Made by a program: the position numbers and the translations under genes. Shown here in pieces: positions 8,757 to 63,525 of a stretch of DNA of 64,000 bases. Origin of the DNA: Alphaproteobacteria bacterium (lineage in GTDB: Bacteria > Pseudomonadota > Alphaproteobacteria > UBA11073); NCBI GenBank assembly GCA_965246755.1, contig OZ251979.1, positions 1,566,642 to 1,630,641 of the forward strand, read 5' to 3'. The first letter of the stretch is position 1. The number at the start of each line of letters is the position of its first letter. The notes beneath the pieces are model-generated. The model was given only the letters and a program-made list of their open reading frames with translations, made no database searches and had not been told where the DNA came from.

Positions 8757-9039
8757 TAAATTCCATCAATCCCATGCAAGCGGTATGCCAAATAAACAGA
8801 TACACCATCGCTAGTAAAACCTATCTTAAATTTTGCTAAAATGTTAATTATTTATGAAAGTAATTGTTTCGTTTGAAAAAGGCGCAAATTTTATGTATAA
8901 CATAATTGTTACATGAACTGAGATTAAGATGAAATTTACAAGGCTATGCCTTGTAAACAATAGGTTATGGGATATATCTCATGTCTATATTTAATTTTGT
9001 GACTGTGGCGTAACATCTGGCAAAGGTAAAGTAAAAATT

Positions 9040-10230
9040 ATGGCAACGGCAGCATCAAAAAAGAAAATTGTATCTAAACAATTAGTTAAATCAAAAAAAC
9101 TTACAAAATCAGTTAAATCACCTGTGAAAGCAAAAATGCCAGTTAAAAAAACGGTCGCCAAAAACATCACAACAAAAACAAAAGCCGTCACTAAACCTGT
9201 CGTTACAAAAACCGTTAAAGCTACTCAGTCTAAAGTCAAAGCTAAAAGTATGCCGGTCAAAGGTAAGGTAGCTAGCAAGGCGAAGCCGGTGGCGAAAAAG
9301 GTTGTAAAGCCAGTGGCTAAAAAAGCCGTGTCCAAGCCTATGGCCAAAACTCTTGCAAAAAAAACCATCATTCAAAAGCCGGTTGCCAAAGCCGCTAAAA
9401 TTGTAGCAAAACCGGCCATCACCGCAAAAACCGTGACTAAAGTCAGTAAGGCGGCCGCCGTGCAGCCTGCTAATAATAATCAGCTGCCTGCAATTGCCGT
9501 CGCCGCGCCGAAAAAGGTTAAAGCGCCAGCGCGCAACAAGAAACAAAAGGCGCTGGATAAAAAACTGGCGCGGACTTTGGTTAAAATCGCTAATGCCGGC
9601 CGCACCGGTCTGGCCAGCACGGGCGTGCAATCCGCGGCGGATGCCGCGTTGCGCGCCACGATGGCGATGGCCGCCAATACCAATAATGCACAAACCGCCG
9701 CGCCAGTGGTGGCGGTGGCTCCGGCCCAGCCAGCCAAATTGGAATTCTCCACCGGTGAAATGGTGGTCTATCCCGCCCACGGCGTTGGCCGGGTGGAAGG
9801 CGTTGAAACGCACACGATTGCCGGTACGGATGTCAAACTGTTCAAAATTACCTTTGAACATGACAAGATGACGTTAAAAGTGCCGGTGCAACGCGCCACC
9901 GGCTCCGGTCTGCGCCGCCTGTCGTCCAAGGATGTCATGAAAAATGCCATGGAAACACTGCGTGGCCGCCCGCGCATTCGCCGCGTCATGTGGTCACGCC
10001 GTGCGCAGGAATATGAGCAAAAGATTAACAGCGGCGATCCGGTCGCCATTGCCGAGGTCTTGCGCGACCTGCGCCGCAACGCGGAGTCGGGCGAGCAGTC
10101 TTATAGCGAACGTCAAATCTTTCAGAACGCGTTAGATCGTTTGGCGCGTGAAGTGGCTGCGGTTGAAAAAATTGAACATGAGAAAGCCGTTAAAAAATTG
10201 GAAGATGTGTTGACAAAAACGGCGGCCTAA
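9040..10230 (+). CDS. cdnL: CarD/CdnL-family transcription factor with ~230-aa N-terminal histone-H1-like Lys/Ala/Val/Thr-rich domain
   Basis: C-terminal 165 aa: FSTGEMVVYPAHGVGRVEGVETHTIAGTDVKLFKITFEHDKMTLKVPV...SERQIFQNALDRLAREVA = CarD_CdnL_TRCF domain; N-terminal KKxVAKP/KAVTKP repeats. Confidence 0.8.
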   Translation: MATAASKKKIVSKQLVKSKKLTKSVKSPVKAKMPVKKTVAKNITTKTKAVTKPVVTKTVKATQSKVKAKSMPVKGKVASKAKPVAKKVVKPVAKKAVSKPMAKTLAKKTIIQKPVAKAAKIVAKPAITAKTVTKVSKAAAVQPANNNQLPAIAVAAPKKVKAPARNKKQKALDKKLARTLVKIANAGRTGLASTGVQSAADAALRATMAMAANTNNAQTAAPVVAVAPAQPAKLEFSTGEMVVYPAHGVGRVEGVETHTIAGTDVKLFKITFEHDKMTLKVPVQRATGSGLRRLSSKDVMKNAMETLRGRPRIRRVMWSRRAQEYEQKINSGDPVAIAEVLRDLRRNAESGEQSYSERQIFQNALDRLAREVAAVEKIEHEKAVKKLEDVLTKTAA

Positions 10231-10249
10231 TTTCTCTGATGTCCAAACT

Positions 10250-10276
10250 AAAAGCGGGCTGCGGCCCGCTTTTTAG
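10250..10276 (+). terminator. Rho-independent terminator after cdnL
   Basis: agcgggctgcggcccgct hairpin followed by T5. Confidence 0.65.
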
Positions 10277-10320
10277 TGTTGCCAATACTTTATTATCTGA
10301 TTAATCTCTAAGAAGGTTTT

Positions 10321-10638
10321 TTGGAGATAGTTATGCGGAGAAAAGCACTTTTAGGAATTCAAGATCAGGGTAGATTATTAAATGCCCTCTGTTATGCATT
10401 CCATACTGGTTATCAAACCCCCAGCCTAATCAAACAAGATATAAGAGACGGAATTCGTGAAGGATCATATCCAAAATGGATGGTTAGAATTCCGCATCAT
10501 AATGTCGCATGCAGGCTCGCTCACTTAAGACAAAGTGGCGTGCTTAAATCTTATGTGCCTTTACCAGAAAAACTTGGGCCTCGACCGAATTTGCAACATG
10601 TAGATTCTGTGGGCTGTCCGTTAGCACCGGCACCATAA
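10321..10638 (+). CDS. Hypothetical protein, AT-rich ORF
   Basis: 105-aa ORF in a low-GC segment; no recognisable family. Confidence 0.25.
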   Translation: MEIVMRRKALLGIQDQGRLLNALCYAFHTGYQTPSLIKQDIRDGIREGSYPKWMVRIPHHNVACRLAHLRQSGVLKSYVPLPEKLGPRPNLQHVDSVGCPLAPAP

Positions 10639-10656
10639 AAATAAAAATTCATTTAG

Positions 10657-10739
10657 AAATGAATTGCTTTGCCATAGGCTGACAGCACGCTTTCGTGCAG
10701 CATTTCGGATAGGGTTGGATGCGGGAAGATGGTGTGCAT
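10657..10739. repeat. Direct repeat copy 1: orphan duplicate of the last 28 codons of lpdA, with the adjacent hairpin terminator aaattcatttagaaatgaatt
   Basis: 81/84 nt identical to 11428-11511; encodes MHTIFPHPTLSEMLHESVLSAYGKAIHF, identical to the LpdA C-terminus; all 3 differences are synonymous. Confidence 0.85.
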
Positions 10740-11086
10740 TATATTTTTTCCTGTTGGCGTGCTTTAGCCAATTGCTGTTGCTGCAGCATAAATTCACGCA
10801 ATACAGCATTCATACGCGATTGGTAACCGCGGCCAAATGATTTAAACCAAGTTACTACATCATTATCAAAACGGATGGTTAGTTGGTTTTTGCGTTCTTG
10901 AAAGCTTTGCATCTTTGTAGCCAGATCTTCTAGGCCATGCACAGCAACGCTATTTTCCCAGTCAATTTCATAAGGCAAAACATCATCCTCATCAGCCAAG
11001 ATTTCAGCTTCGGTCACGGCAACACGCGACCAATCGGTCTTACCCTTTAATTTTTTTAAATCTTCGATAGTGTGAGATTTCAGCAT
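10739..11086 (-). CDS. brnA: BrnA-type antitoxin (DUF4415 N-terminal region plus ribbon-helix-helix C-terminus)
   Basis: KGKTDWSRVAVTEAEILADEDDVLP and TIRFDNDVVTWFKSFGRGYQSRMNAVLREFM match BrnA; overlaps the upstream toxin gene. Confidence 0.7.
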   Translation of the reverse strand: MLKSHTIEDLKKLKGKTDWSRVAVTEAEILADEDDVLPYEIDWENSVAVHGLEDLATKMQSFQERKNQLTIRFDNDVVTWFKSFGRGYQSRMNAVLREFMLQQQQLAKARQQEKI

Positions 11087-11315
11087 CCCTTGCTCTCCTC
11101 ATCGAAATAATGCGAATGACGGACACGCGCATCGTGATAATAACTGAAATGAACCGATTGTCTAAAAGACCGGTAGCAACAAAACGTAACTCTTCATTTC
11201 TATGGGTAGGCAGTAAAATCGGTTTATTTTCAAAAAATCTTGCAACATCTTCAAAATCCAATCCATGCTTGGCTAAATTTGACAGCTGCTTCTCTTCATC
11301 CCATTCAAATTGCAT
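11040..11315 (-). CDS. brnT: BrnT-type toxin (DUF497, RelE-fold ribonuclease)
   Basis: MQFEWDEEKQLSNLAKHGLDFEDVARFF is the hallmark BrnT N-terminus; ~90 aa. Confidence 0.8.
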   Translation of the reverse strand: MQFEWDEEKQLSNLAKHGLDFEDVARFFENKPILLPTHRNEELRFVATGLLDNRFISVIITMRVSVIRIISMRRARDAEISHYRRFKKIKG

Positions 11316-11425
11316 GCTATGCCTTGTTCAATTGAAGTTTTCTTCAAGCAATTGATTTAAGCACAATTCAAGCATCGGTCATTACCGTAAAATTATTATA
11401 ACTACAAATGTAACTACAAGTCAAG

Positions 11426-12826
11426 CTAAAAATGAATTGCTTTGCCATAGGCTGACAGCACGCTTTCATGCAACATTTCGGATAGGGTTGGATGCGGGAA
11501 AATGGTGTGCATCAAGTCCGCCTCGGTTGTTTCCATGGTTTTGGCAATGTTATAACCCTGGATTAGTTCAGTGACTTCAGTGCCGATCATATGCGCACCG
11601 AGCAATTCACCGGTTTTGGCATCAAAGATGGTTTTGATTAAACCTTCGGGTTCACCAAGCGCAATCGCCTTGCCATTACCGATAAACGGAAACTTGCCAA
11701 CCTTGAGCGTATAACCTTTTTCGCGTGCTTTGGCTTCGGTATAGCCAACCGAGGCAACCTGCGGCGTGCAATAGGTACAGCCGGGAATGTTGGTCACATT
11801 CAAGGGATGCACGCCTGGTATGCCAAAGATTTTTTCAACACATATGACGCCTTCATGGCTGGCTTTGTGCGCGAGCCACGGCGGCCCCGCGACATCGCCA
11901 ATCGCATAAACACCCTTTTCCGCCGTTTCGCACCACTGATTGATAACAATCTGGCCGCGCTCAACTTTAATCTTGGTATTTTCCAGGCCGATGTTTTCGA
12001 CGTTGCCAATGATGCCAACTGCAGAAATCACGCGATCAACCGTCAGCGTGTCAATTTTGCCGCCCGCCTCGATAGTAGCGGTCACATTATCCTGGCTTTT
12101 ATCGAGCTTTACAACTTTGGCGCCGGTTTTGATGGTCATACCCTGTTTTTCAAACGCCTTGCGCGCAAAGGCGGAGACCTCGTCATCCTCCACCGGCAGC
12201 ACACGGTCCATGATTTCAACCACCGTGACCTGCGCGCCCAGCGCATTATAAAAGCTGGCGAATTCAATGCCGATCGCGCCGCTGCCGATCACCAGTAATG
12301 ACTTCGGCATCTGCTGCGGCACCATCGCCTCGCGTGAGGTCCAAACCAGTTTGCCGTCTGGCTCCAGTCCCGGCAATATGCGGGGACGCGCGCCGATCGC
12401 CAGCACGATATGCGGTGCGGCGAGGGTCGCGGCATCTTTATTATCTTTACTGACTTTTAATTGGCCCTTGCCGAGCAAAGTCCCCTGCCCGTCAAAAACG
12501 GTAATCTTGTTTTTCTTCATCAAATGCTTGATGCCGCCGACCAACTGTGCCGATACATCGCGCGAACGTTTGACGATTTTGGACAGATCAAATGCCTGAT
12601 CCTTCGCCGAGACGCCATACTCATCAAGATGATGCAAGAGGTGGTAAATTTCAGCCGAGCGCAACAGTGCCTTGGTTGGAATACAGCCCCAGTTAAGGCA
12701 GATGCCGCCTAGATGTTCACGCTCTACCAGTGCGACTTTTTTGCCCAGCTGCGCCGCGCGGATCGCCGCCACATAACCGCCTGGCCCACCGCCGACAATA
12801 ATAATGTCAAAGTTTTCAGACGTCAT
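11426..12826 (-). CDS. lpdA: Dihydrolipoyl dehydrogenase (E3)
   Basis: IIVGGGPGGYVAAIRAAQLG FAD motif, redox-active GGICLNWGCIPTK disulfide, C-terminal dimerisation domain with HAHPTLSE-type motif. Confidence 0.9.
   Translation of the reverse strand: MTSENFDIIIVGGGPGGYVAAIRAAQLGKKVALVEREHLGGICLNWGCIPTKALLRSAEIYHLLHHLDEYGVSAKDQAFDLSKIVKRSRDVSAQLVGGIKHLMKKNKITVFDGQGTLLGKGQLKVSKDNKDAATLAAPHIVLAIGARPRILPGLEPDGKLVWTSREAMVPQQMPKSLLVIGSGAIGIEFASFYNALGAQVTVVEIMDRVLPVEDDEVSAFARKAFEKQGMTIKTGAKVVKLDKSQDNVTATIEAGGKIDTLTVDRVISAVGIIGNVENIGLENTKIKVERGQIVINQWCETAEKGVYAIGDVAGPPWLAHKASHEGVICVEKIFGIPGVHPLNVTNIPGCTYCTPQVASVGYTEAKAREKGYTLKVGKFPFIGNGKAIALGEPEGLIKTIFDAKTGELLGAHMIGTEVTELIQGYNIAKTMETTEADLMHTIFPHPTLSEMLHESVLSAYGKAIHF
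11428..11511. repeat. Direct repeat copy 2 (functional 3' end of lpdA)
   Basis: See copy 1; this copy is in frame with the intact lpdA. Confidence 0.85.
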
Positions 12827-13071
12827 ATGCTAATACTTTCACTGTAATTTTTTGTCCCAAACAATTGCGCGACCCATCCGCCGATTTTTGGAAACAAGGC
12901 ATATACATGATTTTTGACTATATTATCAACGTGTTGTGCCGTGCGACATGTAATTATAAGTCCTGACTTGCCTTGTACCCGCTCAATCTCAAAATCCTGC
13001 ACCAATTCAGGCAAATCAAAGCGGTCTAAAATTTTGTAAGCGCGCAATTGCGCAGCAGTTGGACGTGGCAT
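12823..13071 (-). CDS. Small hypothetical protein between pdhC and lpdA
   Basis: 82-aa ORF with 4-nt overlaps to both neighbours (translationally coupled); no recognisable family. Confidence 0.4.
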   Translation of the reverse strand: MPRPTAAQLRAYKILDRFDLPELVQDFEIERVQGKSGLIITCRTAQHVDNIVKNHVYALFPKIGGWVAQLFGTKNYSESISI

Positions 13072-14345
13072 TACAGCAATAATCCAATTGGGTTTTCAAT
13101 AAAATCTTTAAATGCCGCGATAAACTCCGCGCCGACTGCGCCATCAACCACACGGTGATCGACGGATAATGTAACCGTCATCACAGTCGCGATTTCCAAC
13201 TTGTCATTTTTAACGATGGCACGTTTTTCACCTGCGCCAACCGCCAGAATGCAGCCCTGCGGCGGATTGATGATCGCCGCAAATTGTTTGATGCCGAACA
13301 TACCGAGGTTAGAGATGGTAAAGGTGCCGCCCTGGAATTCCTCCGGCTTTAGTTTGTTCTCACGCGCGCGCAGGCCGAGGTCTTTCATTTCTTTCGAAAT
13401 GTCCGTTAGCGATTTGCCTTCCGCTTTTTTGATGATGGGTGTCACCAGGCCGTTCGGCGTCGCGACCGCGACCGAAACATCGGCATGTTTAAACTTTAAT
13501 ATCGCGTCTTCCGTCCAGGCGGCGTTAGCGGCAGGAATTTTGATCAGTGCCGCGGCAACTGCTTTGATTACCATGTCATTGACAGAAATCTTGGCAATAG
13601 TCTGCGCAGCATTATATTGCGCGCGAATATCCAGCAATTTATCAATTTCGCAATCCACCGTCAGGTAGAAATGCGGCACATTTTGTTTGGACTCGGTCAG
13701 ACGCTTAGCGATAATTTTTCGGATCTGACTGTTTGGTTCCGCCACATAGTCCATGCCCAGCATATCGGCCAATTGTCTGGCGTTAGGGCCCGACATAGTT
13801 GGCGCATTCACTTTAGCTGACGCTACGGCGCGGTCAGCTTGTCCCTTTGGAGCAGACTCGACATCCGCCACAACGATGCGGCCATGCGGGCCGGTGCCTT
13901 TAATAGTGGCGAGGGTAACACCTTTTTCAGCCGCTATACGTTTGGCGAGTGGCGACGCGAAGACACGGGCACCAGATGAAAGTTGGAGATTAGAAATTGG
14001 AGACTGGACAGGCGCAGATTGAACGGCCGGTGACGGTGCGTTGTTGGTGGCAATTGGTGTTTCGGTTTTTTTATCCGACGTCCCGCTTCTGACTTCCATC
14101 TCACCCTCTTCCAGCAAGATGGCGATGGGCGTATTGACGGCAACACCCTCACTCCCTTCGGCAATCAGGATTTTACCGATCCTGCCCTCATCCACGGCTT
14201 CAACTTCCATGGTTGCCTTGTCAGTTTCAATTTCAGCGATGACCTGGCCGCTTTTAACAGTGTCGCCTTCTTTCACTGTCCATTTGGACAATTTGCCCTC
14301 GGTCATGGTGGGCGACAGCGCTGGCATTAAAATTTCAATACTCAT
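13071..14345 (-). CDS. pdhC: Pyruvate dehydrogenase E2 dihydrolipoamide acetyltransferase
   Basis: N-terminal lipoyl domain ([17 protein letters not shown]), E3-binding domain, catalytic domain with DHRVVDGA. Confidence 0.9.
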
Positions 14346-15184
14346 GCGAATACTTCTTTAGATGGATGTTGCGTTGATAGATAAAGACGTGGCCGTAAAA
14401 ACCAATACAAGATTGAAAATAATATTGAATTAATAAGGCAAATTAAAAAACACAATTTACCTACTTTCTGAGCGTATATAGTTAGATGTTGTAAGGTGTC
14501 AAAATTGGTAGGCAATATGAAGAAAAAATTATAAGAAATAGATGATGCAATTAGTGATGATGCACATGACGTAATTAAGAAAGACAATAAATTTGGTTTG
14601 CAAATTCTGTGGATCAAATTCCAAACAATAAAAACAACGAAAGGTACGGTTATAAAATTAGCTAATAATCCAAACGATGGCTCTACGGATCCTCCCAAAA
14701 ATTTTTCTTCAAAATTAATACATAAAAAAAGTAAAATCACATTGAATAAGCCATATACTACCAATCCAAATTCAACCAAAAAACAATAAGCTAAAATTCC
14801 AAGTTTTTTCTGTTTGAAAAAAAGCTTTCCAAACACAATTGTTGCAGGAATCAAAAACAGAAAATCAAAGGCGTAACCAATCGGCGTGCTTTGCTGACCA
14901 CCGACCGCACCAACCGCAATTATTGGCATAAAAAATAGTACGAGGATGGCCCAACCGATTAAACGGTTTTGTTTCTCTATAAAGTTGTTCCCACGTTTTA
15001 AAATTTTCCAAATTATGTTCATGATTAATGGAAATATCAAAAGCGGGATTAAAATAAAATACCCAAAAAAAAGTCCTGAATATACAAATAATGTTGATCC
15101 GCCACCCATTAATGCGACAAACAAAGAATACAGAGACACATAGATAGCTTCATTTTTCTGCAAAAGATTAAATTTAATAAGCAT
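14342..15184 (-). CDS. Hypothetical polytopic membrane protein (AT-rich) inserted between pdhB and pdhC
   Basis: 280-aa ORF, ~8 predicted hydrophobic helices, Phe/Leu/Ile-rich; GC far below flanks; overlaps pdhB stop (TAATG) and pdhC start (ATGA). Confidence 0.55.
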
Positions 15185-27028: not shown

Positions 27029-27718
27029 ATGCCCGTTTACACATTATTCATCCTTGCTTGCATCATTTTACCCTATCTGATTGGTTCTATACCATTTGGA
27101 CTGATCCTGACCCGCGCCGCAGGCCTGGGCGATGTGCGTAAGATCGGCTCCGGCAATATTGGCGCAACCAACGTGCTGCGCACTGGGCGTAAGGACTTAG
27201 CGATTGCGACATTATTATGCGACGCGGCGAAGGGTGCGCTGGTCATTATCGCTTATCGCTATTTTATCGAACACAAGGTTATGCCGCAGATGGATTATTA
27301 TATGGGCATCACCTTTGGTGGCACACCTGCGCAAAAAGAACTTGTACAATGGTTGCCCTATGTGCCGCTGCTGGCGGGCGGCATGGTCATCATCGGCCAT
27401 ATGTTTTCCATTTGGCTGCGCTTTAAAGGCGGCAAGGGCGTTGCCACCTCGCTCGGCGTCATCACGGCGGTCAGCTGGCCGGTGGGAGTGGCAGCTTTTG
27501 GTACCTGGTTGCTGGTTGCTTTTGTCAGCCGTTATTCATCCCTGTCAGCAATGGCCGCCGCCGCCGCCGCGCCAATCTATGCCTGGTATTTTACCGACCA
27601 CGTAACCGCCCTTGCCTTTCTGGGTATTGCACTGCTCGTAATCACGAGGCATTACAAAAATATCAGAAATTTGCTGCAAGGCGCTGAAGCAAAAATTAAA
27701 TTAAAAAATTCCGTTTAG
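27029..27718 (+). CDS. plsY: Glycerol-3-phosphate acyltransferase PlsY
   Basis: GSIPFGL...GSGNIGATNVLR...KGGKGVAT motifs. Confidence 0.85.
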   Translation: MPVYTLFILACIILPYLIGSIPFGLILTRAAGLGDVRKIGSGNIGATNVLRTGRKDLAIATLLCDAAKGALVIIAYRYFIEHKVMPQMDYYMGITFGGTPAQKELVQWLPYVPLLAGGMVIIGHMFSIWLRFKGGKGVATSLGVITAVSWPVGVAAFGTWLLVAFVSRYSSLSAMAAAAAAPIYAWYFTDHVTALAFLGIALLVITRHYKNIRNLLQGAEAKIKLKNSV

Positions 27719-27996
27719 GGTTCGGATTTTGAACTCGTATTAAATTTTCTGATCATATTAACGTTGGTTTTTTTAGGTTTCATAATTATATCGTTTCCAG
27801 ACAAAACCTTAGTAAAAGAAGCTCTGTTTAATGGTGCGGTTATATTGTCATAGCTTGAATTATTGGATTTATGTAAAGAGTATACAGCAGCAGCAATAGG
27901 AGGAATACCAATAACAACTCCAATAAAAAATCCAGATACGATATGTGGAGCTATTTTTTTATTAGACATGTAGTTTTTCATAACATAAAATAGCAT
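27715..27996 (-). CDS. Hypothetical small single-TM protein (AT-rich)
   Basis: 93-aa ORF in a low-GC patch between plsY and dprA; one hydrophobic helix. Confidence 0.3.
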   Translation of the reverse strand: MLFYVMKNYMSNKKIAPHIVSGFFIGVVIGIPPIAAAVYSLHKSNNSSYDNITAPLNRASFTKVLSGNDIIMKPKKTNVNMIRKFNTSSKSEP

Positions 27997-29250: not shown

Positions 29251-31904
29251 TGGCACAAGATAACCTCGTCATCGTCGAAAGTCCGGCCAAAGCTAAAACC
29301 ATCGAAAAATATCTGGGGCCGGATTATAAAGTCCTCGCCAGTTTCGGGCATATCCGCGATCTGCTGCCCAAAGATGGCGCGGTGCGCCCCGATGAAGACT
29401 TCGCGATGGATTGGGTGCTGGGCGACCGTGCTCATAAAAATGTCAAAGAGATTGAACGCGCCGTTAAAACCTCTAAAACATTATATCTTGCGACCGACCC
29501 GGACCGCGAGGGCGAGGCCATTTCCTGGCATGTCAAAGAATATCTGGATGAAAAGAATTTATTAAAAGGCCGCACTATTCATCGCGTCACTTTTAACGAA
29601 ATTACCAAAAGCGCGATTCAGACTGCGTTTAAGCAGCCGCGGGAAATCAATGCCGAGCTGGTTGAAGCTTATCTGGCGCGCCGCGCGCTGGATTTTTTAG
29701 TCGGCTTTAACCTGTCGCCGATTTTGTGGCGCAAATTGCCGGGCGCACGGTCGGCGGGGCGGGTGCAGTCGGTCGCGCTGCGCCTCATCTGCGAACGTGA
29801 ATTTGAAATTGAACAGTTTAAGCCCCAAGAATATTGGTCAGTTGAAGCGCTGTTTCAAACGAATAGCGGCGCCACTTTTACCGCGCGGCTAACGCATTTT
29901 GACGGCCAAAAACTGGACAAATTTGCCATCAATAACGAAACGCGCGCGCAAGAGATTCTAGCCGCATTGCAAAAACAAAATTTTACCGTCAGCGATGTGA
30001 CGAAGAAAGAAGTCAAACGTCATCCGGCCGCGCCATTTATTACCTCAAGCTTGCAGATGGAAGCGTCACGCAAACTCGGTTTCGGCGCTAGCCAAACCAT
30101 GCGCACCGCGCAAAAACTTTATGAAGGCGTGACGCTGGGCGGCGAAACGGTCGGACTTATCACCTATATGCGGACTGATGGCGTGCAATTGTCCCAAGAT
30201 GCAATCTACTCCTGCCGCACGACGATTGATAAATTGTACGGCCAGGATTATTTGCCGGAACAACCACGCATCTATTCATCAAAAGCCAAAAACGCGCAGG
30301 AAGCGCATGAGGCAATTCGCCCCACCGATCTCGCGCGTACGCCTGATTACGTCGCCAAATATGTCGATCATGATCAGGCGCGGTTGTATGAATTGATCTG
30401 GAAACGCACGTTGGCCGCGCAGATGGCTAGCGCGGTTCTGGACCAGGCTACCGTCGATATTACCGGCACGAACAAGGCGGCGTTCCGCGCCACCGGTTCG
30501 GTGGTGAAATTCGACGGGTTTTTTAAACTCTATTTTGAAGATACTGACGATATGCCGTCTGACAGTGAGGATAATCGCCGCTTGCCGCCGCTGACTGTCA
30601 AAGACGCGTTGCAGACGAACAGCATTAAACCCGAACAGCATTTCACGCAGCCGCCGCCACGTTTCAGCGAGGCGTCGCTGGTCAAGGCCTTGGAAGAGCT
30701 TGGCATCGGCCGCCCTTCTACCTATGCCTCGATCATCCAGGTGTTGCAGGACCGCAATTATGTGCGGCTCGATAAAAAGCGTTTTGTGCCCGAAGATCGC
30801 GGGCGGATTGTCACAACCTTCCTTACCAATTTTTTCCGCCGTTATGTGGAATATGATTTTACCGCCGCGCTTGAAGGCCAGCTGGATGAAATTTCCGCCG
30901 GCGCGTTGGATTGGAAAGACATGCTGCGCAAATTCTGGGTCGAATTTATCGGCGCGGTCGATGAAACCAAACCACTTACCATCACGCAGGTGATTGATGT
31001 GCTGGATGCGGAGCTGGATAAGTTTTTATTTCCGCCGCGCGCAGATGGCAGTGATCCGCGCAAATGTCCGCGTGATAGTGGTCGCCTTGGTTTAAAGCTC
31101 GGTAAATTCGGCGCCTTTGTCGGCTGCTCGAATTATCCGGAGTGCAAAGAAACGCGGCCATTGGGTCTCGCCGAAAGCGCCGCCGCTGCCAACGGCGGCG
31201 GTGTGTTTGAACCGCGTGAAATCGGCATTGATCCTGACAGTGGTGAAGTTATCACCATCAAGCTTGGCCCCTATGGCCCTTATCTCGAACGGCCTAATGG
31301 TGACAACAAGCCCAAACGCGCGTCGTTGACGCCCGGCACCAACCTGGATGCCATTACGCTGGAAGATGCCGTCAAATTATTATTGCTGCCGCGCGAGGTG
31401 GGGATTTTCCCCGAAACCGGCGATCCGATTTACGCCAACGTCGGCCGGTTCGGGCCCTATATTCAAACCGGTAAATTGCTGGCGTCATTGCCCAAGGGTG
31501 AAACGGCGCAGGATATCGGCCCCAACCGCGCGGTGGATATTTTGATGGAGAAAATTGCGCGCAGCCTGCCGGTTAAAGAATTGGATAATCATCCAGACGA
31601 TGATGCGCCAATCGGCATTTATCGTAGCCGGTTTGGTTTTGTCATTCGTCATAATGATATCGAGGCGCGCCTTGCCAAAGGCACCGACCCACAAGACATC
31701 GACAGTGCCACCGCCATTTTGTTATTAAAGCAGATGGGCAAACCGGCGTTCAAATTTGGCAAGAAAAAGGGCAAAGGTAAAACCACCGCGCCAAAGAAAA
31801 CAGCTGTTAAAAAAACCGCCGTGAAAAAGACAGCTGCCAAAAAAACTGCCGCTAAAAAATCTGCGGTAAAAAAGACCGCCGCTAAGCAAGTTACGGCAAA
31901 ATAA
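29250..31904 (+). CDS. topA: DNA topoisomerase I with C-terminal Lys-rich (VKKTA)n tail
   Basis: TOPRIM N-terminus (LVIVESPAKAKTIEKYLG), catalytic Tyr region, C-terminal Zn-ribbon-like repeats, terminal KKTAVKKTAVKKTAAKKTAAKKSAVKKTAAK. Confidence 0.9.
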   Translation: MAQDNLVIVESPAKAKTIEKYLGPDYKVLASFGHIRDLLPKDGAVRPDEDFAMDWVLGDRAHKNVKEIERAVKTSKTLYLATDPDREGEAISWHVKEYLDEKNLLKGRTIHRVTFNEITKSAIQTAFKQPREINAELVEAYLARRALDFLVGFNLSPILWRKLPGARSAGRVQSVALRLICEREFEIEQFKPQEYWSVEALFQTNSGATFTARLTHFDGQKLDKFAINNETRAQEILAALQKQNFTVSDVTKKEVKRHPAAPFITSSLQMEASRKLGFGASQTMRTAQKLYEGVTLGGETVGLITYMRTDGVQLSQDAIYSCRTTIDKLYGQDYLPEQPRIYSSKAKNAQEAHEAIRPTDLARTPDYVAKYVDHDQARLYELIWKRTLAAQMASAVLDQATVDITGTNKAAFRATGSVVKFDGFFKLYFEDTDDMPSDSEDNRRLPPLTVKDALQTNSIKPEQHFTQPPPRFSEASLVKALEELGIGRPSTYASIIQVLQDRNYVRLDKKRFVPEDRGRIVTTFLTNFFRRYVEYDFTAALEGQLDEISAGALDWKDMLRKFWVEFIGAVDETKPLTITQVIDVLDAELDKFLFPPRADGSDPRKCPRDSGRLGLKLGKFGAFVGCSNYPECKETRPLGLAESAAAANGGGVFEPREIGIDPDSGEVITIKLGPYGPYLERPNGDNKPKRASLTPGTNLDAITLEDAVKLLLLPREVGIFPETGDPIYANVGRFGPYIQTGKLLASLPKGETAQDIGPNRAVDILMEKIARSLPVKELDNHPDDDAPIGIYRSRFGFVIRHNDIEARLAKGTDPQDIDSATAILLLKQMGKPAFKFGKKKGKGKTTAPKKTAVKKTAVKKTAAKKTAAKKSAVKKTAAKQVTAK
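31791..31885 (+). repeat. 15-bp tandem repeat (~6 units) encoding the (V/A)KKTA pentapeptide tail of TopA
   Basis: Units gttaaaaaaaccgcc / gtgaaaaagacagct / gccaaaaaaactgcc / gctaaaaaatctgcg / gtaaaaaagaccgcc. Confidence 0.8.
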
Positions 31905-31940: not shown

Positions 31941-32213
31941 ATGAAAATGGAGCTTAACCTGCCTGACAATTTACCGCCACCGCTGGTTAATCATATCGGC
32001 CAATTGCTTGACCGTATTCAAGATGATCCGTCGTTTGCCGAAGATATTTGGTTACACGATGATGCACCGGATAATTTTGTTATGACGCCGGAAATTCGCA
32101 CCAAAATTGAAGAGGGTTTGGCTGATATTGCTGTAGGACGTATTTTGACCTCTGAACAAGTTGATAAAAATTTGGCCGAATATCGGGCACAATGGCTAGC
32201 TCAGAACAATTAA
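31941..32213 (+). CDS. Putative antitoxin paired with the downstream ParE-like toxin
   Basis: 90-aa acidic protein; overlaps the toxin gene by 22 nt; C-terminal TPEIRTKIEEGLADIAVGRILTSEQV resembles addiction-module antidote proteins. Confidence 0.5.
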   Translation: MKMELNLPDNLPPPLVNHIGQLLDRIQDDPSFAEDIWLHDDAPDNFVMTPEIRTKIEEGLADIAVGRILTSEQVDKNLAEYRAQWLAQNN

Positions 32214-32524
32214 AGGTTATATATTCTGAAAGTGCCCAAAAAGATTTAAAGGAAATCTGGCGTTGGAATGCTAAAACTTATTGTTTAAATCATGCTGATA
32301 AATATATCGAACAGTTAAAGACAAAAATCTGTATTTTAGAATCGGACCCCCATCGTGGCACTGCAATAATTGAATATCAGGATTTACGGGGCCTGCTGAT
32401 TAAAAAACGTAACAGTAAACATGGGCATATGGCCTTTTATAAAATCAATCAAAGCACAATTTATATAGCGCGCATTCTACATACTGCAATGAATTGGCAA
32501 ATTCATCTAGATGGCAATGCATGA
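32192..32524 (+). CDS. parE: ParE/RelE-family type II toxin
   Basis: 110 aa; SAQKDLKEIWRW..., C-terminal HGHMAFYKINQSTIYIARILHTAMN matches the ParE H.I.YR....I.I.RILH..MD signature. Confidence 0.75.
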   Translation: MASSEQLKVIYSESAQKDLKEIWRWNAKTYCLNHADKYIEQLKTKICILESDPHRGTAIIEYQDLRGLLIKKRNSKHGHMAFYKINQSTIYIARILHTAMNWQIHLDGNA

Positions 32525-36924: not shown

Positions 36925-37437
36925 TTATGATTCTGGTGCAGGCGTAGATGAGGGTATTGGTGATGATGTTTGAGTAACAGCATCACTTCCCTGCAAAATG
37001 TTAACAGCATTAAAGTCAGTTGCAGTACGCCTAAATGGGTTAGGAGTACTTTTTACGCGGGCCGCCTTTAACTCGGTAAATTTTTCGTACCTATATTCTT
37101 CCCAAGATAAACCGTCATCGTTAATTGCGGCAACTAATTTGTTAACATCTTTTAAATTACTAACGCGAGACAGTGTATCTGTTAAGTAATTAACTTTTGG
37201 CTCAATTAGTAAATCTGGAATTATTTTCACGCGGTGTGCTAGCTCTTGAACTGCATCCACAAGACCATCTTCATTGATCTGTTTATCTAGGCCCATGTCG
37301 AGTTCACGAACAATATTCAATATGGTGCTAATAAGACCAAGAGTTGGCGATTTTGTTCTAAATGCACGACTTGCCCATGACCCGCTTTGAAATTCTCCGT
37401 AAGCTTTTAAGTTTTCATTTTCAAAATCAAAAGACAT
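36925..37437 (-). CDS. Hypothetical protein (AT-rich)
   Basis: 170-aa ORF in a low-GC patch between cysQ and prfB; no family recognised. Confidence 0.4.
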   Translation of the reverse strand: MSFDFENENLKAYGEFQSGSWASRAFRTKSPTLGLISTILNIVRELDMGLDKQINEDGLVDAVQELAHRVKIIPDLLIEPKVNYLTDTLSRVSNLKDVNKLVAAINDDGLSWEEYRYEKFTELKAARVKSTPNPFRRTATDFNAVNILQGSDAVTQTSSPIPSSTPAPES

Positions 37438-46400: not shown

Positions 46401-46799
46401 ATGATTAACTTAATAGATAAATCTAGGGAGATACAAATGAACCGGAGAGACCAGCTATTAAATGTTATTGGCATAATAGAAGATTATTTGAATTCTTTTG
46501 AATTTTGGGTGACCCGTGACGAAGACCTTACTTTGTTACTTAAGGCTGATAAGTGTTTTGAAAGCTTTCCCCGTCAAGAACAGGCTATTTTTAAAAAATT
46601 TGGTATTAATGTAACAGTAGAAGGAACTTTGTTGCGGTTGGATACGACGCAAGAAAATTTGAAAAGTAATCTTAGTAAGATGGTTTCTTATCGAGGAGGT
46701 TTTAATTGGGGACGCGTAAAAACTTTGCCAGAACCGCGACGAAATGATGCGCGTGTGTTTAGAAATGCTAGCCAATGGGGTGGCTGGGTTGGCCCTTAA
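46401..46799 (+). CDS. Hypothetical protein (AT-rich)
   Basis: 132-aa ORF in a low-GC patch; no family recognised. Confidence 0.3.
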   Translation: MINLIDKSREIQMNRRDQLLNVIGIIEDYLNSFEFWVTRDEDLTLLLKADKCFESFPRQEQAIFKKFGINVTVEGTLLRLDTTQENLKSNLSKMVSYRGGFNWGRVKTLPEPRRNDARVFRNASQWGGWVGP

Positions 46800-58270: not shown

Positions 58271-58750
58271 TTAAGCAGCAAGGCTGAGAGTCAAATCAGC
58301 ATTACGTTTTTGATACCGTAGTCGCTGTAAAGTATTTTGACTTTTGCCAGCCACCCCAAATGCTTCTAAAAGCTGCAAACGTACAGCAGGCAAACCCGCG
58401 CTTTCACTAGCTTCAGAAATAACGCCAACAATTTCATCCTTAGACATATCTTGTTTTGCGAACACACTGGCAAACATATGTTTATCAAAATCATCACAAT
58501 CCTCATAATAATGTTTGCACAATTCACCAAAAAACAGGGTGAGCGCTTTCATATCATCCGTGCAAAAAGCAGGAGTGATTACCACACGCTGTAAACTTTG
58601 CAGATATATGGATCCGTCAATGTTAAGATCGCCTATTAATCTACGCGCGTGTTTAATATCGCGCTCTTCCAGATTCTGCAGCCATCGCTCGGCCAGCATA
58701 CTATTTAATTTATCAGATGGTACAAAATCCCTAATTTTACTGGTGGTCAC
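58271..58750 (-). CDS. Hypothetical protein (AT-rich)
   Basis: 159-aa ORF in a low-GC patch; no family recognised. Confidence 0.4.
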   Translation of the reverse strand: MTTSKIRDFVPSDKLNSMLAERWLQNLEERDIKHARRLIGDLNIDGSIYLQSLQRVVITPAFCTDDMKALTLFFGELCKHYYEDCDDFDKHMFASVFAKQDMSKDEIVGVISEASESAGLPAVRLQLLEAFGVAGKSQNTLQRLRYQKRNADLTLSLAA

Positions 58751-62727: not shown

Positions 62728-63525
62728 TTATGATTGGAAAAAATTAGGAAATCGTGTTTGAGCTATTTTCGCCGCCGCTTGAGGCGTCACAGCAATTTCG
62801 CAAGGCACAAGATGCGCAGCCACATTATCGAAAGTTGCAGTGCGTCTGTTTAGTTTAGCTGCAGCATATTGATCGCCATGGCTGAAATGCCAATATTCAT
62901 TATCCAAACCGACAATATCTTCCGCGGCAAAAGCGCGTTTCAAGACGCCGCGTAACTTTTGAATAGTTTCGTTTAATCCTTCAACGTCCATAGGTGCAAA
63001 GGCTCTATTACCGTCATAACAATGAGAAACATTTTCACGAACAAGTTCATCTTCAGCTTGCGTTAAATCTATTAAATATCGTTGTCCCATATAATTCAAT
63101 CGCAAACGAACATCAATGGCTCCGCCGCTTAAATGTGCGGGACGCTTTGCCTCACCAACCGGAGCGACATATTCGTCTACGATTTGCCTTAATTCTGTTT
63201 CAGACTTTTCCGGATAAGCCAACTGCGCTTCATTCATAAAATGTTTGTGATACGCTGCTTGCTGTACTGGCGACCTAAAGGCATCAAATATGTAAAGTTC
63301 TAAGTGCGACGAAAGATCACGCAGAGTCGGGATTTTGTCACATTCGGTATGAACATGAATAGAAACACGCTCCAACTTTTTAGCAAAGCTTTTGCGAACA
63401 TAAGGAATTAAATATTCATCATCAGCAAGCGCAACGTAGGGCGCAAACTCATGAATATGAACAAGCGGTTCATTATTTTCTTCAATTTCAATTTTTGCTG
63501 CATCAGCGTCTGTAATAAAAGCCAT
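62728..63525 (-). CDS. ddpX: D-Ala-D-Ala dipeptidase, VanX/DdpX family (peptidase M15D), low-GC gene
   Basis: LYIFDAFRSP, HLSGGAIDVRL, EYWHFSHGDQ motifs. Confidence 0.65.
   Translation of the reverse strand: MAFITDADAAKIEIEENNEPLVHIHEFAPYVALADDEYLIPYVRKSFAKKLERVSIHVHTECDKIPTLRDLSSHLELYIFDAFRSPVQQAAYHKHFMNEAQLAYPEKSETELRQIVDEYVAPVGEAKRPAHLSGGAIDVRLRLNYMGQRYLIDLTQAEDELVRENVSHCYDGNRAFAPMDVEGLNETIQKLRGVLKRAFAAEDIVGLDNEYWHFSHGDQYAAAKLNRRTATFDNVAAHLVPCEIAVTPQAAAKIAQTRFPNFFQS

Follow-up and report, generated by a model that had tools for sequence, protein, structure and literature searches.

In Escherichia coli, e14 and phage 21 are integrated in the 3' end of icd, and their insertion has left behind the C-terminal pseudogene icdC, as recounted in PMC13626634 (citing Hill et al. 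1989). A similar arrangement, reduced to a single small operon, is described here for an alphaproteobacterium of the lineage UBA11073, in a stretch of 64,000 nucleotides of contig OZ251979.1 (assembly GCA_965246755.1, positions 1,566,642 to 1,630,641), referred to as the window. In this stretch, a brnT-brnA (brnTA) toxin-antitoxin cassette lies at the 3' end of lpdA, the gene for dihydrolipoamide dehydrogenase (E3), between two direct repeats of the end of that gene: copy A, which completes the functional lpdA, and copy B, an orphan fragment on the far side of the insert.

The likeness (PMC13626634) extends to the target, an essential metabolic gene that is entered at its 3' end and kept whole by a near-identical end beside the element, to the orphan C-terminal fragment at the far end, and to the small number of differences between the two ends, mostly silent or conservative. 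The two cases differ in scale and content, since e14 is an element of ~15 kb with its own integrase and SOS-induced excision, whereas the insert in the window measures 686 bp, holds a toxin-antitoxin operon only and has lpdA as its target. The window shows the flanking direct repeats of the e14/phage 21 type, with copy A finishing the gene; the integrase that elements of that type encode next to an att site was found neither between the repeats nor among the 36 window ORFs scanned.

Cis-mobilizable elements (CIMEs) are decayed integrative and conjugative elements or integrative and mobilizable elements that retain attL and attR, having lost the genes for integration and transfer (PMC5704250). 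The window resembles them in that repeats flank an insert where a conserved gene ends, and no integrase has been found in this insert; a parallel locus from sponge-associated Rhodospirillaceae, described below, displays actual decay from a larger island. However, CIMEs were first described for streptococci, with known cognate integrases and a demonstrated mobilisation in cis, while the repeats in the window are only putative att sites and the content is a single operon.

Toxin-antitoxin modules, brnTA among them, are also flanked by XerC/XerD sites on Acinetobacter plasmids, where these so-called pdif modules lie between two Xer sites of 28 bp in inverse orientation and are moved by recombinases encoded elsewhere. 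The window shares with them a minimal unit, made of a toxin-antitoxin pair alone, between recombination-prone repeats, but it is enclosed by direct repeats of 87 nt that derive from the end of a chromosomal gene, and not by inverted Xer sites. Regarding the genes themselves, the closest described system is BrnT/BrnA of Brucella abortus (PDB 3u97), which has the same two domains, the same toxin-first overlapping operon and a promoter with direct repeats, although the BrnT of the window is only a distant relative and its activity is predicted.

Anatomy of the duplicated lpdA end and of its cassette

The lpdA gene is the final member of the operon pdhA-pdhB-pdhC-orf82-lpdA, and it is intact. Both copies of its end (Table 1) are 87 nt long, lie in direct orientation and encode the same peptide, MHTIFPHPTLSEMLHESVLSAYGKAIHF, followed by a stop codon. 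They are identical at 82 of the 87 positions overall, and at 80 of 84 if only coding bases are considered. The four coding differences, at positions 12, 40, 45 and 84, are all synonymous (ATT/ATC, TTG/CTG, CAT/CAC and TTT/TTC in A and B, respectively), with T always in copy A and C always in copy B; the fifth affects the stop codon, TAG in lpdA and TAA in the orphan, so that all five are silent. The homology is limited at one end by the stop codon and at the other by the ATG of Met439. This is the sole long repeat of unique sequence in the window, and the 87-nt segment has no third copy.

The original prediction, made from the bare sequence, had recognised this pair of repeats, their derivation from lpdA, their common peptide and stop, and the respective roles of the two copies, and alignment of the copies confirms all of these points. 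Its details needed adjustment: the repeats had been placed at 10657-10739 and 11428-11511, which is 2-4 nt short at the stop-codon end, and the identity had been given as 81/84 with three synonymous differences, one fewer than the coding sequence actually holds, with the stop codon left out.

The 686 bp between the copies (10740-11425; 690 bp had been estimated) contain nothing but a promoter, brnT and brnA, as had been anticipated. The GC content is 0.389 in the insert, 0.524 in lpdA and 0.503 in the whole window, and the GC content at third codon positions (GC3) is 0.35-0.37 in the cassette genes, compared with ~0.60 in lpdA. The composition of the cassette is foreign.

A promoter scan of positions 10150-11650 gave its top site directly after copy A, with a match to consensus of 11/12; the -35 element begins only 2 nt past the lpdA stop codon, from which it is separated by a single base, C. 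Within this region, the 9-nt direct repeat TTGTAGTTA can be read at 11419-11411 and 11407-11399, the latter copy overlapping the -10 element, and it is a possible operator for BrnA. The suspected identity of the two genes was borne out by profile searches (Table 1), the match of BrnT covering profile positions 1-77 of 77. In comparisons with solved structures, BrnT matched PDB 7vd7 (E=8e-9) and the Brucella BrnT 3u97 (E=2.6e-6), while no match was obtained for BrnA. The reading frames overlap by 47 nt with the toxin first, an order also seen, with overlaps of 38-41 nt, in three homologous loci (L084, L086 and L087). Judged by both domains, their adjacency and the toxin-first overlap, the pair is a predicted BrnT/BrnA type II toxin-antitoxin operon.

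Relatives of this cassette are distant. The closest homologues of BrnT other than itself are at most 52% identical, those of viral origin only 37%, and in the protein collection BrnA retrieved nothing besides itself at E<=1e-10. The BrnT homologues occur in chromosomal, Methylomonas and plasmid contexts, and no flanking repeats were found around them. Searches of the window cassette with Rfam and PADLOC returned nothing. A transposon, an insertion sequence, a miniature inverted-repeat transposable element and a pdif module were also considered as the identity of the insert; they are ruled out by the 87-nt direct repeat, by the lack of inverted repeats bracketing 10740-11425 and by the failure to find a transposase among the 36 window ORFs scanned.

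The orphan is an open frame whose ATG overlaps the stop codon of brnA (TAATG), and it carries neither frameshifts nor changes in amino acids. Beyond it there is an AU-rich hairpin, whose 5' arm is formed by the last bases of the lpdA coding sequence; copy A has that arm alone. The hairpin proposed as a terminator does exist, with a stem of 8 bp and a U-run, but it is weak: it was not picked up by a terminator scan, failing the G+C criterion of that scan, and its fold is no better than that of shuffled sequence (z = -0.29). It may possibly act as a weak intrinsic terminator that would now serve lpdA together with brnTA. Since lpdA is now without a terminator of its own, read-through into brnTA is expected, in addition to transcription from the promoter of the cassette.

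The hairpin palindrome is unique as such in the window. Its arms AATTCAT and ATGAATT pair closely at only two sites in the 64 kb, 10645-10665 and 32489-32511, and the 13-mer AAATTCATTTAGA has one further occurrence, with a single mismatch. Each of the two sites lies at the 3' boundary of a toxin-antitoxin cassette, of which the window has two (the second is described in the last section). The chance expectation per window is 0.01-0.02 palindromes and 0.14 extra matches of the 13-mer; as one arm is native lpdA coding sequence, the recurrence may be a coincidence.

Table 1. Positions of the features at the lpdA locus (numbered in the window) and of the related loci (numbered in each locus). MAG, metagenome-assembled genome.
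Feature	Position	Strand	Description
lpdA, dihydrolipoamide dehydrogenase (E3)	11426-12826	minus	intact, 466 aa; Pyr_redox_2 E=2e-70, Pyr_redox_dim E=3.2e-36 (Pfam)
Repeat copy A, completing functional lpdA	11426-11512	minus	last 28 codons + TAG; no hairpin after it
Cassette promoter and candidate operator	11395-11425	minus	-35 TTGACT (11424-11419), 18-nt spacer, -10 TATAAT (11400-11395)
brnT, predicted toxin gene	11040-11315	minus	91 aa; PF04365 E=3.5e-22
brnA, predicted antitoxin gene	10739-11086	minus	115 aa; PF14384 E=1.6e-16
Repeat copy B, orphan lpdA 3' end	10653-10739	minus	28 codons + TAA
AU-rich hairpin, possible weak terminator	10633-10666	minus	AAUUCAUU-UCUA-AAUGAAUU then UUUUUAUUUUUAU; 8-bp stem + U-run
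Variable defence island downstream of lpdA	L059 9411-11515; L062 9396-17395; L091		sponge-associated Rhodospirillaceae MAGs
polA/recA-linked pair	L092-L099 4868-6471; L100 1604-3207; L101 1701-3304		Peptidase_M78/DUF4411 pair

A parallel duplication in sponge-associated Rhodospirillaceae

A scan of a genome collection with LpdA yielded 80 alphaproteobacterial lpdA loci, the proteins of which are 66-77% identical to that of the window. Only one of them, L059, carries a second copy of the lpdA end. This locus belongs to a sponge-associated Rhodospirillaceae MAG, its LpdA is ~69% identical to that of the window, and its repeat is 412 nt long (9030-9440 versus 11516-11926, 98.3% identical), extending ~18 nt beyond the stop codon. 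The bracketed insert of 2.1 kb has 52% GC in a genome of 67-70% GC, and it encodes, in the orientation of lpdA, an HTH_3/Peptidase_M78 protein (RmrA-like in PADLOC) and a DUF4411 protein, which form a toxin-antitoxin-like pair. The same structure recurs in L091, which was assembled independently and has an LpdA 99.6% identical to that of L059.

In this case, the origin of the insert can be followed. After copy A, L059 retains ~50 nt that match the start of the type I restriction gene hsdR, with a stop at codon 6, while in a sister species (L062, LpdA 95% identical) hsdR stands directly after lpdA and opens an island that encodes HsdR, HsdM, an HD-domain protein and HsdS. L059 also keeps a 247-nt segment that matches sequence from inside the L062 island at 83% identity. 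The insert of L059 is therefore a decayed island, as the hsdR remnant and the L062-like segment reveal. No integrase was found in the readable part of the L062 island. A remnant of a GIY-YIG nuclease, also considered for the L059 insert, was unsupported by Pfam.

A G/A polymorphism between L059 and L091 is common to both repeat copies within each genome; this fits gene conversion, and the collapse of repeats in short-read assembly could also produce it. The clustering of the differences between the L059 copies at the repeat edges was set aside for a similar reason, namely that short-read assembly can collapse repeat interiors.

The Rhodospirillaceae island and the window have in common the duplication of the lpdA 3' end, a two-gene cassette of lower GC oriented as lpdA and the lack of an integrase. 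They differ in that the cassette of the former consists of the RmrA-like HTH/Peptidase_M78 gene and the DUF4411 gene, is accompanied by remnants of type I restriction-modification and is flanked by a 412-nt repeat. The lpdA gene has been struck, with duplication of its end, independently in two distant lineages.

The Peptidase_M78/DUF4411 pair is not confined to lpdA, being located directly after polA (L092-L099) and recA (L100 and L101), in the same orientation and without duplication (Table 1). In L100, the pair adjoins a transposase and a defence cluster with type I restriction-modification and SMC-like genes.

Origin of the insert and of the second gene end

The locus in the window looks like a gene-end duplication produced by an integrated element of which a toxin-antitoxin operon survives, a kind of structure that is known, although lpdA has not been reported before as its target. 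The explanation preferred here, tentatively and with somewhat less than even confidence, is that a horizontally acquired brnTA operon integrated at the 3' end of lpdA via reciprocal recombination with an imported gene end, and that what remains is an eroded remnant devoid of integrase. According to this proposal, reciprocal (Campbell-type) recombination would have taken place between the end of chromosomal lpdA and a second version of that end present on the incoming DNA; copy A would most likely have arrived with the element, and the native end, together with its hairpin, would have been displaced to the far side. The geometry would be that of e14 and phage 21 at icd (PMC13626634), decayed to a remnant like a CIME (PMC5704250), and L059 is evidence that decay of this sort occurs at lpdA. 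The element may originally have been a larger island targeting lpdA, whose recombinase and other cargo would since have been deleted. The remnant would then be held in place in three ways: deletions into lpdA would be lethal, loss of the cassette through the 87-nt repeats would free the stable toxin, and the insertion, with lpdA intact, would be free of cost. Recombination between the repeats should indeed delete the cassette precisely and restore lpdA, a loss that the toxin should penalise, as toxin-antitoxin systems generally do.

Several small-sample signals mildly favour a history in which each copy evolved as the end of a working gene and copy A came with AT-rich DNA. In the 84-nt stretch, 22% of random substitutions would be synonymous, or 34.5% if only transitions are counted. 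If the orphan had drifted neutrally after a duplication in situ, the probability of finding four synonymous changes in four would be 0.017-0.069, and that of all four changes having occurred in the functional copy 0.001-0.004. In addition, the GC3 of the orphan (0.607) equals that of lpdA codons 1-438 (0.605), while copy A, at 0.50, is displaced in the direction of the cassette genes. An imported copy A is weakly favoured because the differences are all silent, because T is found in the copy beside the AT-rich cassette, and because the orphan has the GC3 of native lpdA. This pattern, silent and one-directional, lends weak support to the earlier proposal that the replacement for the gene end was brought by the incoming DNA. 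The attachment of the orphan, and not of copy A, to the terminator-like hairpin also supports this explanation, and the Rhodospirillaceae locus makes integration of an island followed by decay credible, since there a separate lpdA-end duplication encloses what is left of a larger defence island. Neither the choice of codons nor that of stop codons tells which copy is native (core open reading frames (ORFs) end in TAA in 36 cases, in TAG in 11 and in TGA in seven).

Several observations weigh against the integration of an imported element followed by decay. The duplications at the two loci differ in length (87 versus 412 nt) and at both boundaries, which speaks against one conserved att core. 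From one repeat to the other the cassette takes up all the sequence, without pseudogene debris, so that decay would have had to trim the element up to both boundaries and yet spare an unselected orphan that is perfectly preserved; remnants of a larger element are seen in the L059 parallel and not in the insert of the window. Statistically, an imported copy is weakly supported, and gene conversion between the copies could mimic the silent C/T pattern. The absence of an integrase between the repeats, already predicted, extends to the 36 window ORFs scanned against Pfam for integrase, transposase and phage families, among which no gene of these kinds was found, and to the insert of L059, where there is no integrase either. 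No lpdA-end mimic was found in viral contigs or GenBank phages, where the apparent phage hits were mislabelled bacterial contigs, and a metagenome scan with a 24-mer from the repeat matched only an unrelated lpdA followed by lipA. With no LpdA more than 77% identical among the 80 loci, no empty lpdA site could be shown; in the nearest (L002, 77% identical) and in L032 the convergent lpdA...carD synteny is kept, with other genes in between. Finally, among 131 downstream ORFs gathered from those lpdA loci whose sequence reaches far enough past the gene, the commonest was lipA (34 of 131) and no integrase family occurred among the families with at least two members; therefore, lpdA is not a general island site. 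Self-comparison of ~1.1 Mb of fetched loci revealed no other high-identity gene-end duplication of this kind.

An alternative, considered rather unlikely, is homologous integration with no recombinase, in which a small circle with brnTA and a 3' fragment of lpdA entered through a single RecA-mediated crossover. Such a circle might stem from an excision, from a fragment that was acquired by transduction or transformation and then circularised, or from the remnant of a plasmid; the crossover would have duplicated whatever length of homology it carried, and the repeats would permit its excision by RecA. The differing repeats would suit this alternative, since a repeat running from Met439 to the stop codon in the window and another reaching ~18 nt past it in L059 look like arbitrary segments of homology, and so would the failure to find an integrase in either case. 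Silent differences would be expected if both copies had been working ends in related genomes, and the DUF4411 cassette has also settled directly after recA and polA. Nevertheless, those two cases lack a duplication, the BrnTA homologues elsewhere lack flanking repeats, and 87 nt at 94% identity are a poor substrate for RecA. Moreover, the searches yielded no free or plasmid version in which an lpdA fragment accompanies the cassette, BrnA having retrieved only itself and BrnT nothing above 52%, and the insert of L059 has demonstrably decayed from a larger island and is not a minimal circle.

A further alternative, judged improbable to a similar degree, is that the second end arose in situ during an illegitimate insertion, the foreign DNA having been caught where two short tandem copies of the lpdA end meet. 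Unequal sister-strand joining or the fill-in of a widely staggered break would be the routes, only those events that left lpdA intact would have survived, and both copies would be native and identical at birth. Formally, the structure is that of a tandem duplication with an insert at its junction; the absence of a recombinase, the duplication lengths that vary between cases and the near identity of the L059 copies are all in agreement with such an origin. It is the probabilities given above (about 0.02-0.07 for four silent changes in four, and about 0.001-0.004 for all four in the functional copy) that speak against it, along with an orphan free of indels and amino-acid changes despite a divergence of ~5%. 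The position of the 3' boundary exactly at the stop codon would likewise be a coincidence for a random breakpoint and is expected for ends that evolved separately. Gene conversion could blunt these arguments.

Going one step beyond homologous integration at a single locus, the conserved lpdA 3' end might be a recurrent landing site in Alphaproteobacteria for small toxin-antitoxin or defence cassettes that travel with portable gene-end homology and no recombinase, a proposal that has to be regarded as quite doubtful. If it were true, single-crossover entry would duplicate the gene end, exit as a circle would proceed via the repeats, and the toxin would ensure retention, defining a "gene-end hitchhiker", a mobile unit driven by host recombination.

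An assembly artefact, in which two strain variants downstream of lpdA were stitched into one contig, is very improbable because five differences separate the copies in the window and each of their four junctions is unique, the repeat being moreover shorter than a read pair and the L059 structure recovered in two independent assemblies, even if the source is apparently one assembled contig of 1.93 Mb and the identical repeat interiors of the short-read MAGs L059 and L091 could partly be due to repeat collapse.

Neighbouring insertions and meaning of the locus

The window consists of core chromosome that includes, among others, flagellar genes, carD, pdh, topA and rnr, and about 11 small low-GC3 ORFs or ORF pairs are wedged between the core genes. 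No flanking direct repeats of at least 12 nt were found around the ten other AT-rich inserts tested in the window. The ORF orf105 (10321-10638) is convergent with lpdA and lies immediately past the orphan; it has a GC content of 0.394, like that of the cassette, its ATG at 10333 is preceded by a good ribosome-binding site, it matches no family, and it may represent a separate acquisition in the same gap between lpdA and carD.

Two AT-rich ORFs are located within the operon that lpdA closes. An ORF of 280 aa between pdhB and pdhC (14342-15184, GC 0.32, no Pfam match) widens the spacing of the lipoyl-domain sequences to 2218 nt, compared with roughly 1100-1400 nt in relatives, and the 82-aa orf82 between pdhC and lpdA (12823-13071, GC3 0.37, no Pfam match) overlaps its neighbours at start and stop.

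The second toxin-antitoxin pair of the window, at 31941-32524, consists of a 90-aa parD-like ORF and a 110-aa ParE (PF05016, E=1.4e-13) between topA and rnr. It has a GC3 of 0.29-0.37 and no flanking duplication, and the stop codon of ParE overlaps the likely start of rnr (ATGA). Small ORFs of low GC3 (0.24-0.34) also separate core genes at 27715-27996, 36925-37437, 46401-46799, 58271-58750 and 62728-63525; Pfam searches with these five gave no match except a weak one to Peptidase_M15 for the last. These ORFs suggest frequent small insertions in this 1.9-Mb genome. In addition, CarD bears an N-terminal extension of ~220 aa (9040-9700) rich in Lys, Ala, Pro and Val, similar to that of the L002 CarD, and TopA ends in a C-terminal tail of AKKTA-like 15-nt repeats (31780-31900).

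With regard to its meaning, the locus offers a very compact example of an addictive toxin-antitoxin operon as what would be the sole survivor of an integrated element, and it shows an essential gene kept whole by a duplicated end. In practical annotation, an orphan of 28 codons would go unrecorded or be listed as a pseudogene, and the lpdA operon now continues into the toxin operon. The parallel in Rhodospirillaceae hints at lpdA as an unrecognised integration site, and if the events took place without a recombinase, toxin-antitoxin and defence genes would have an added route by which to move, using host recombination only.

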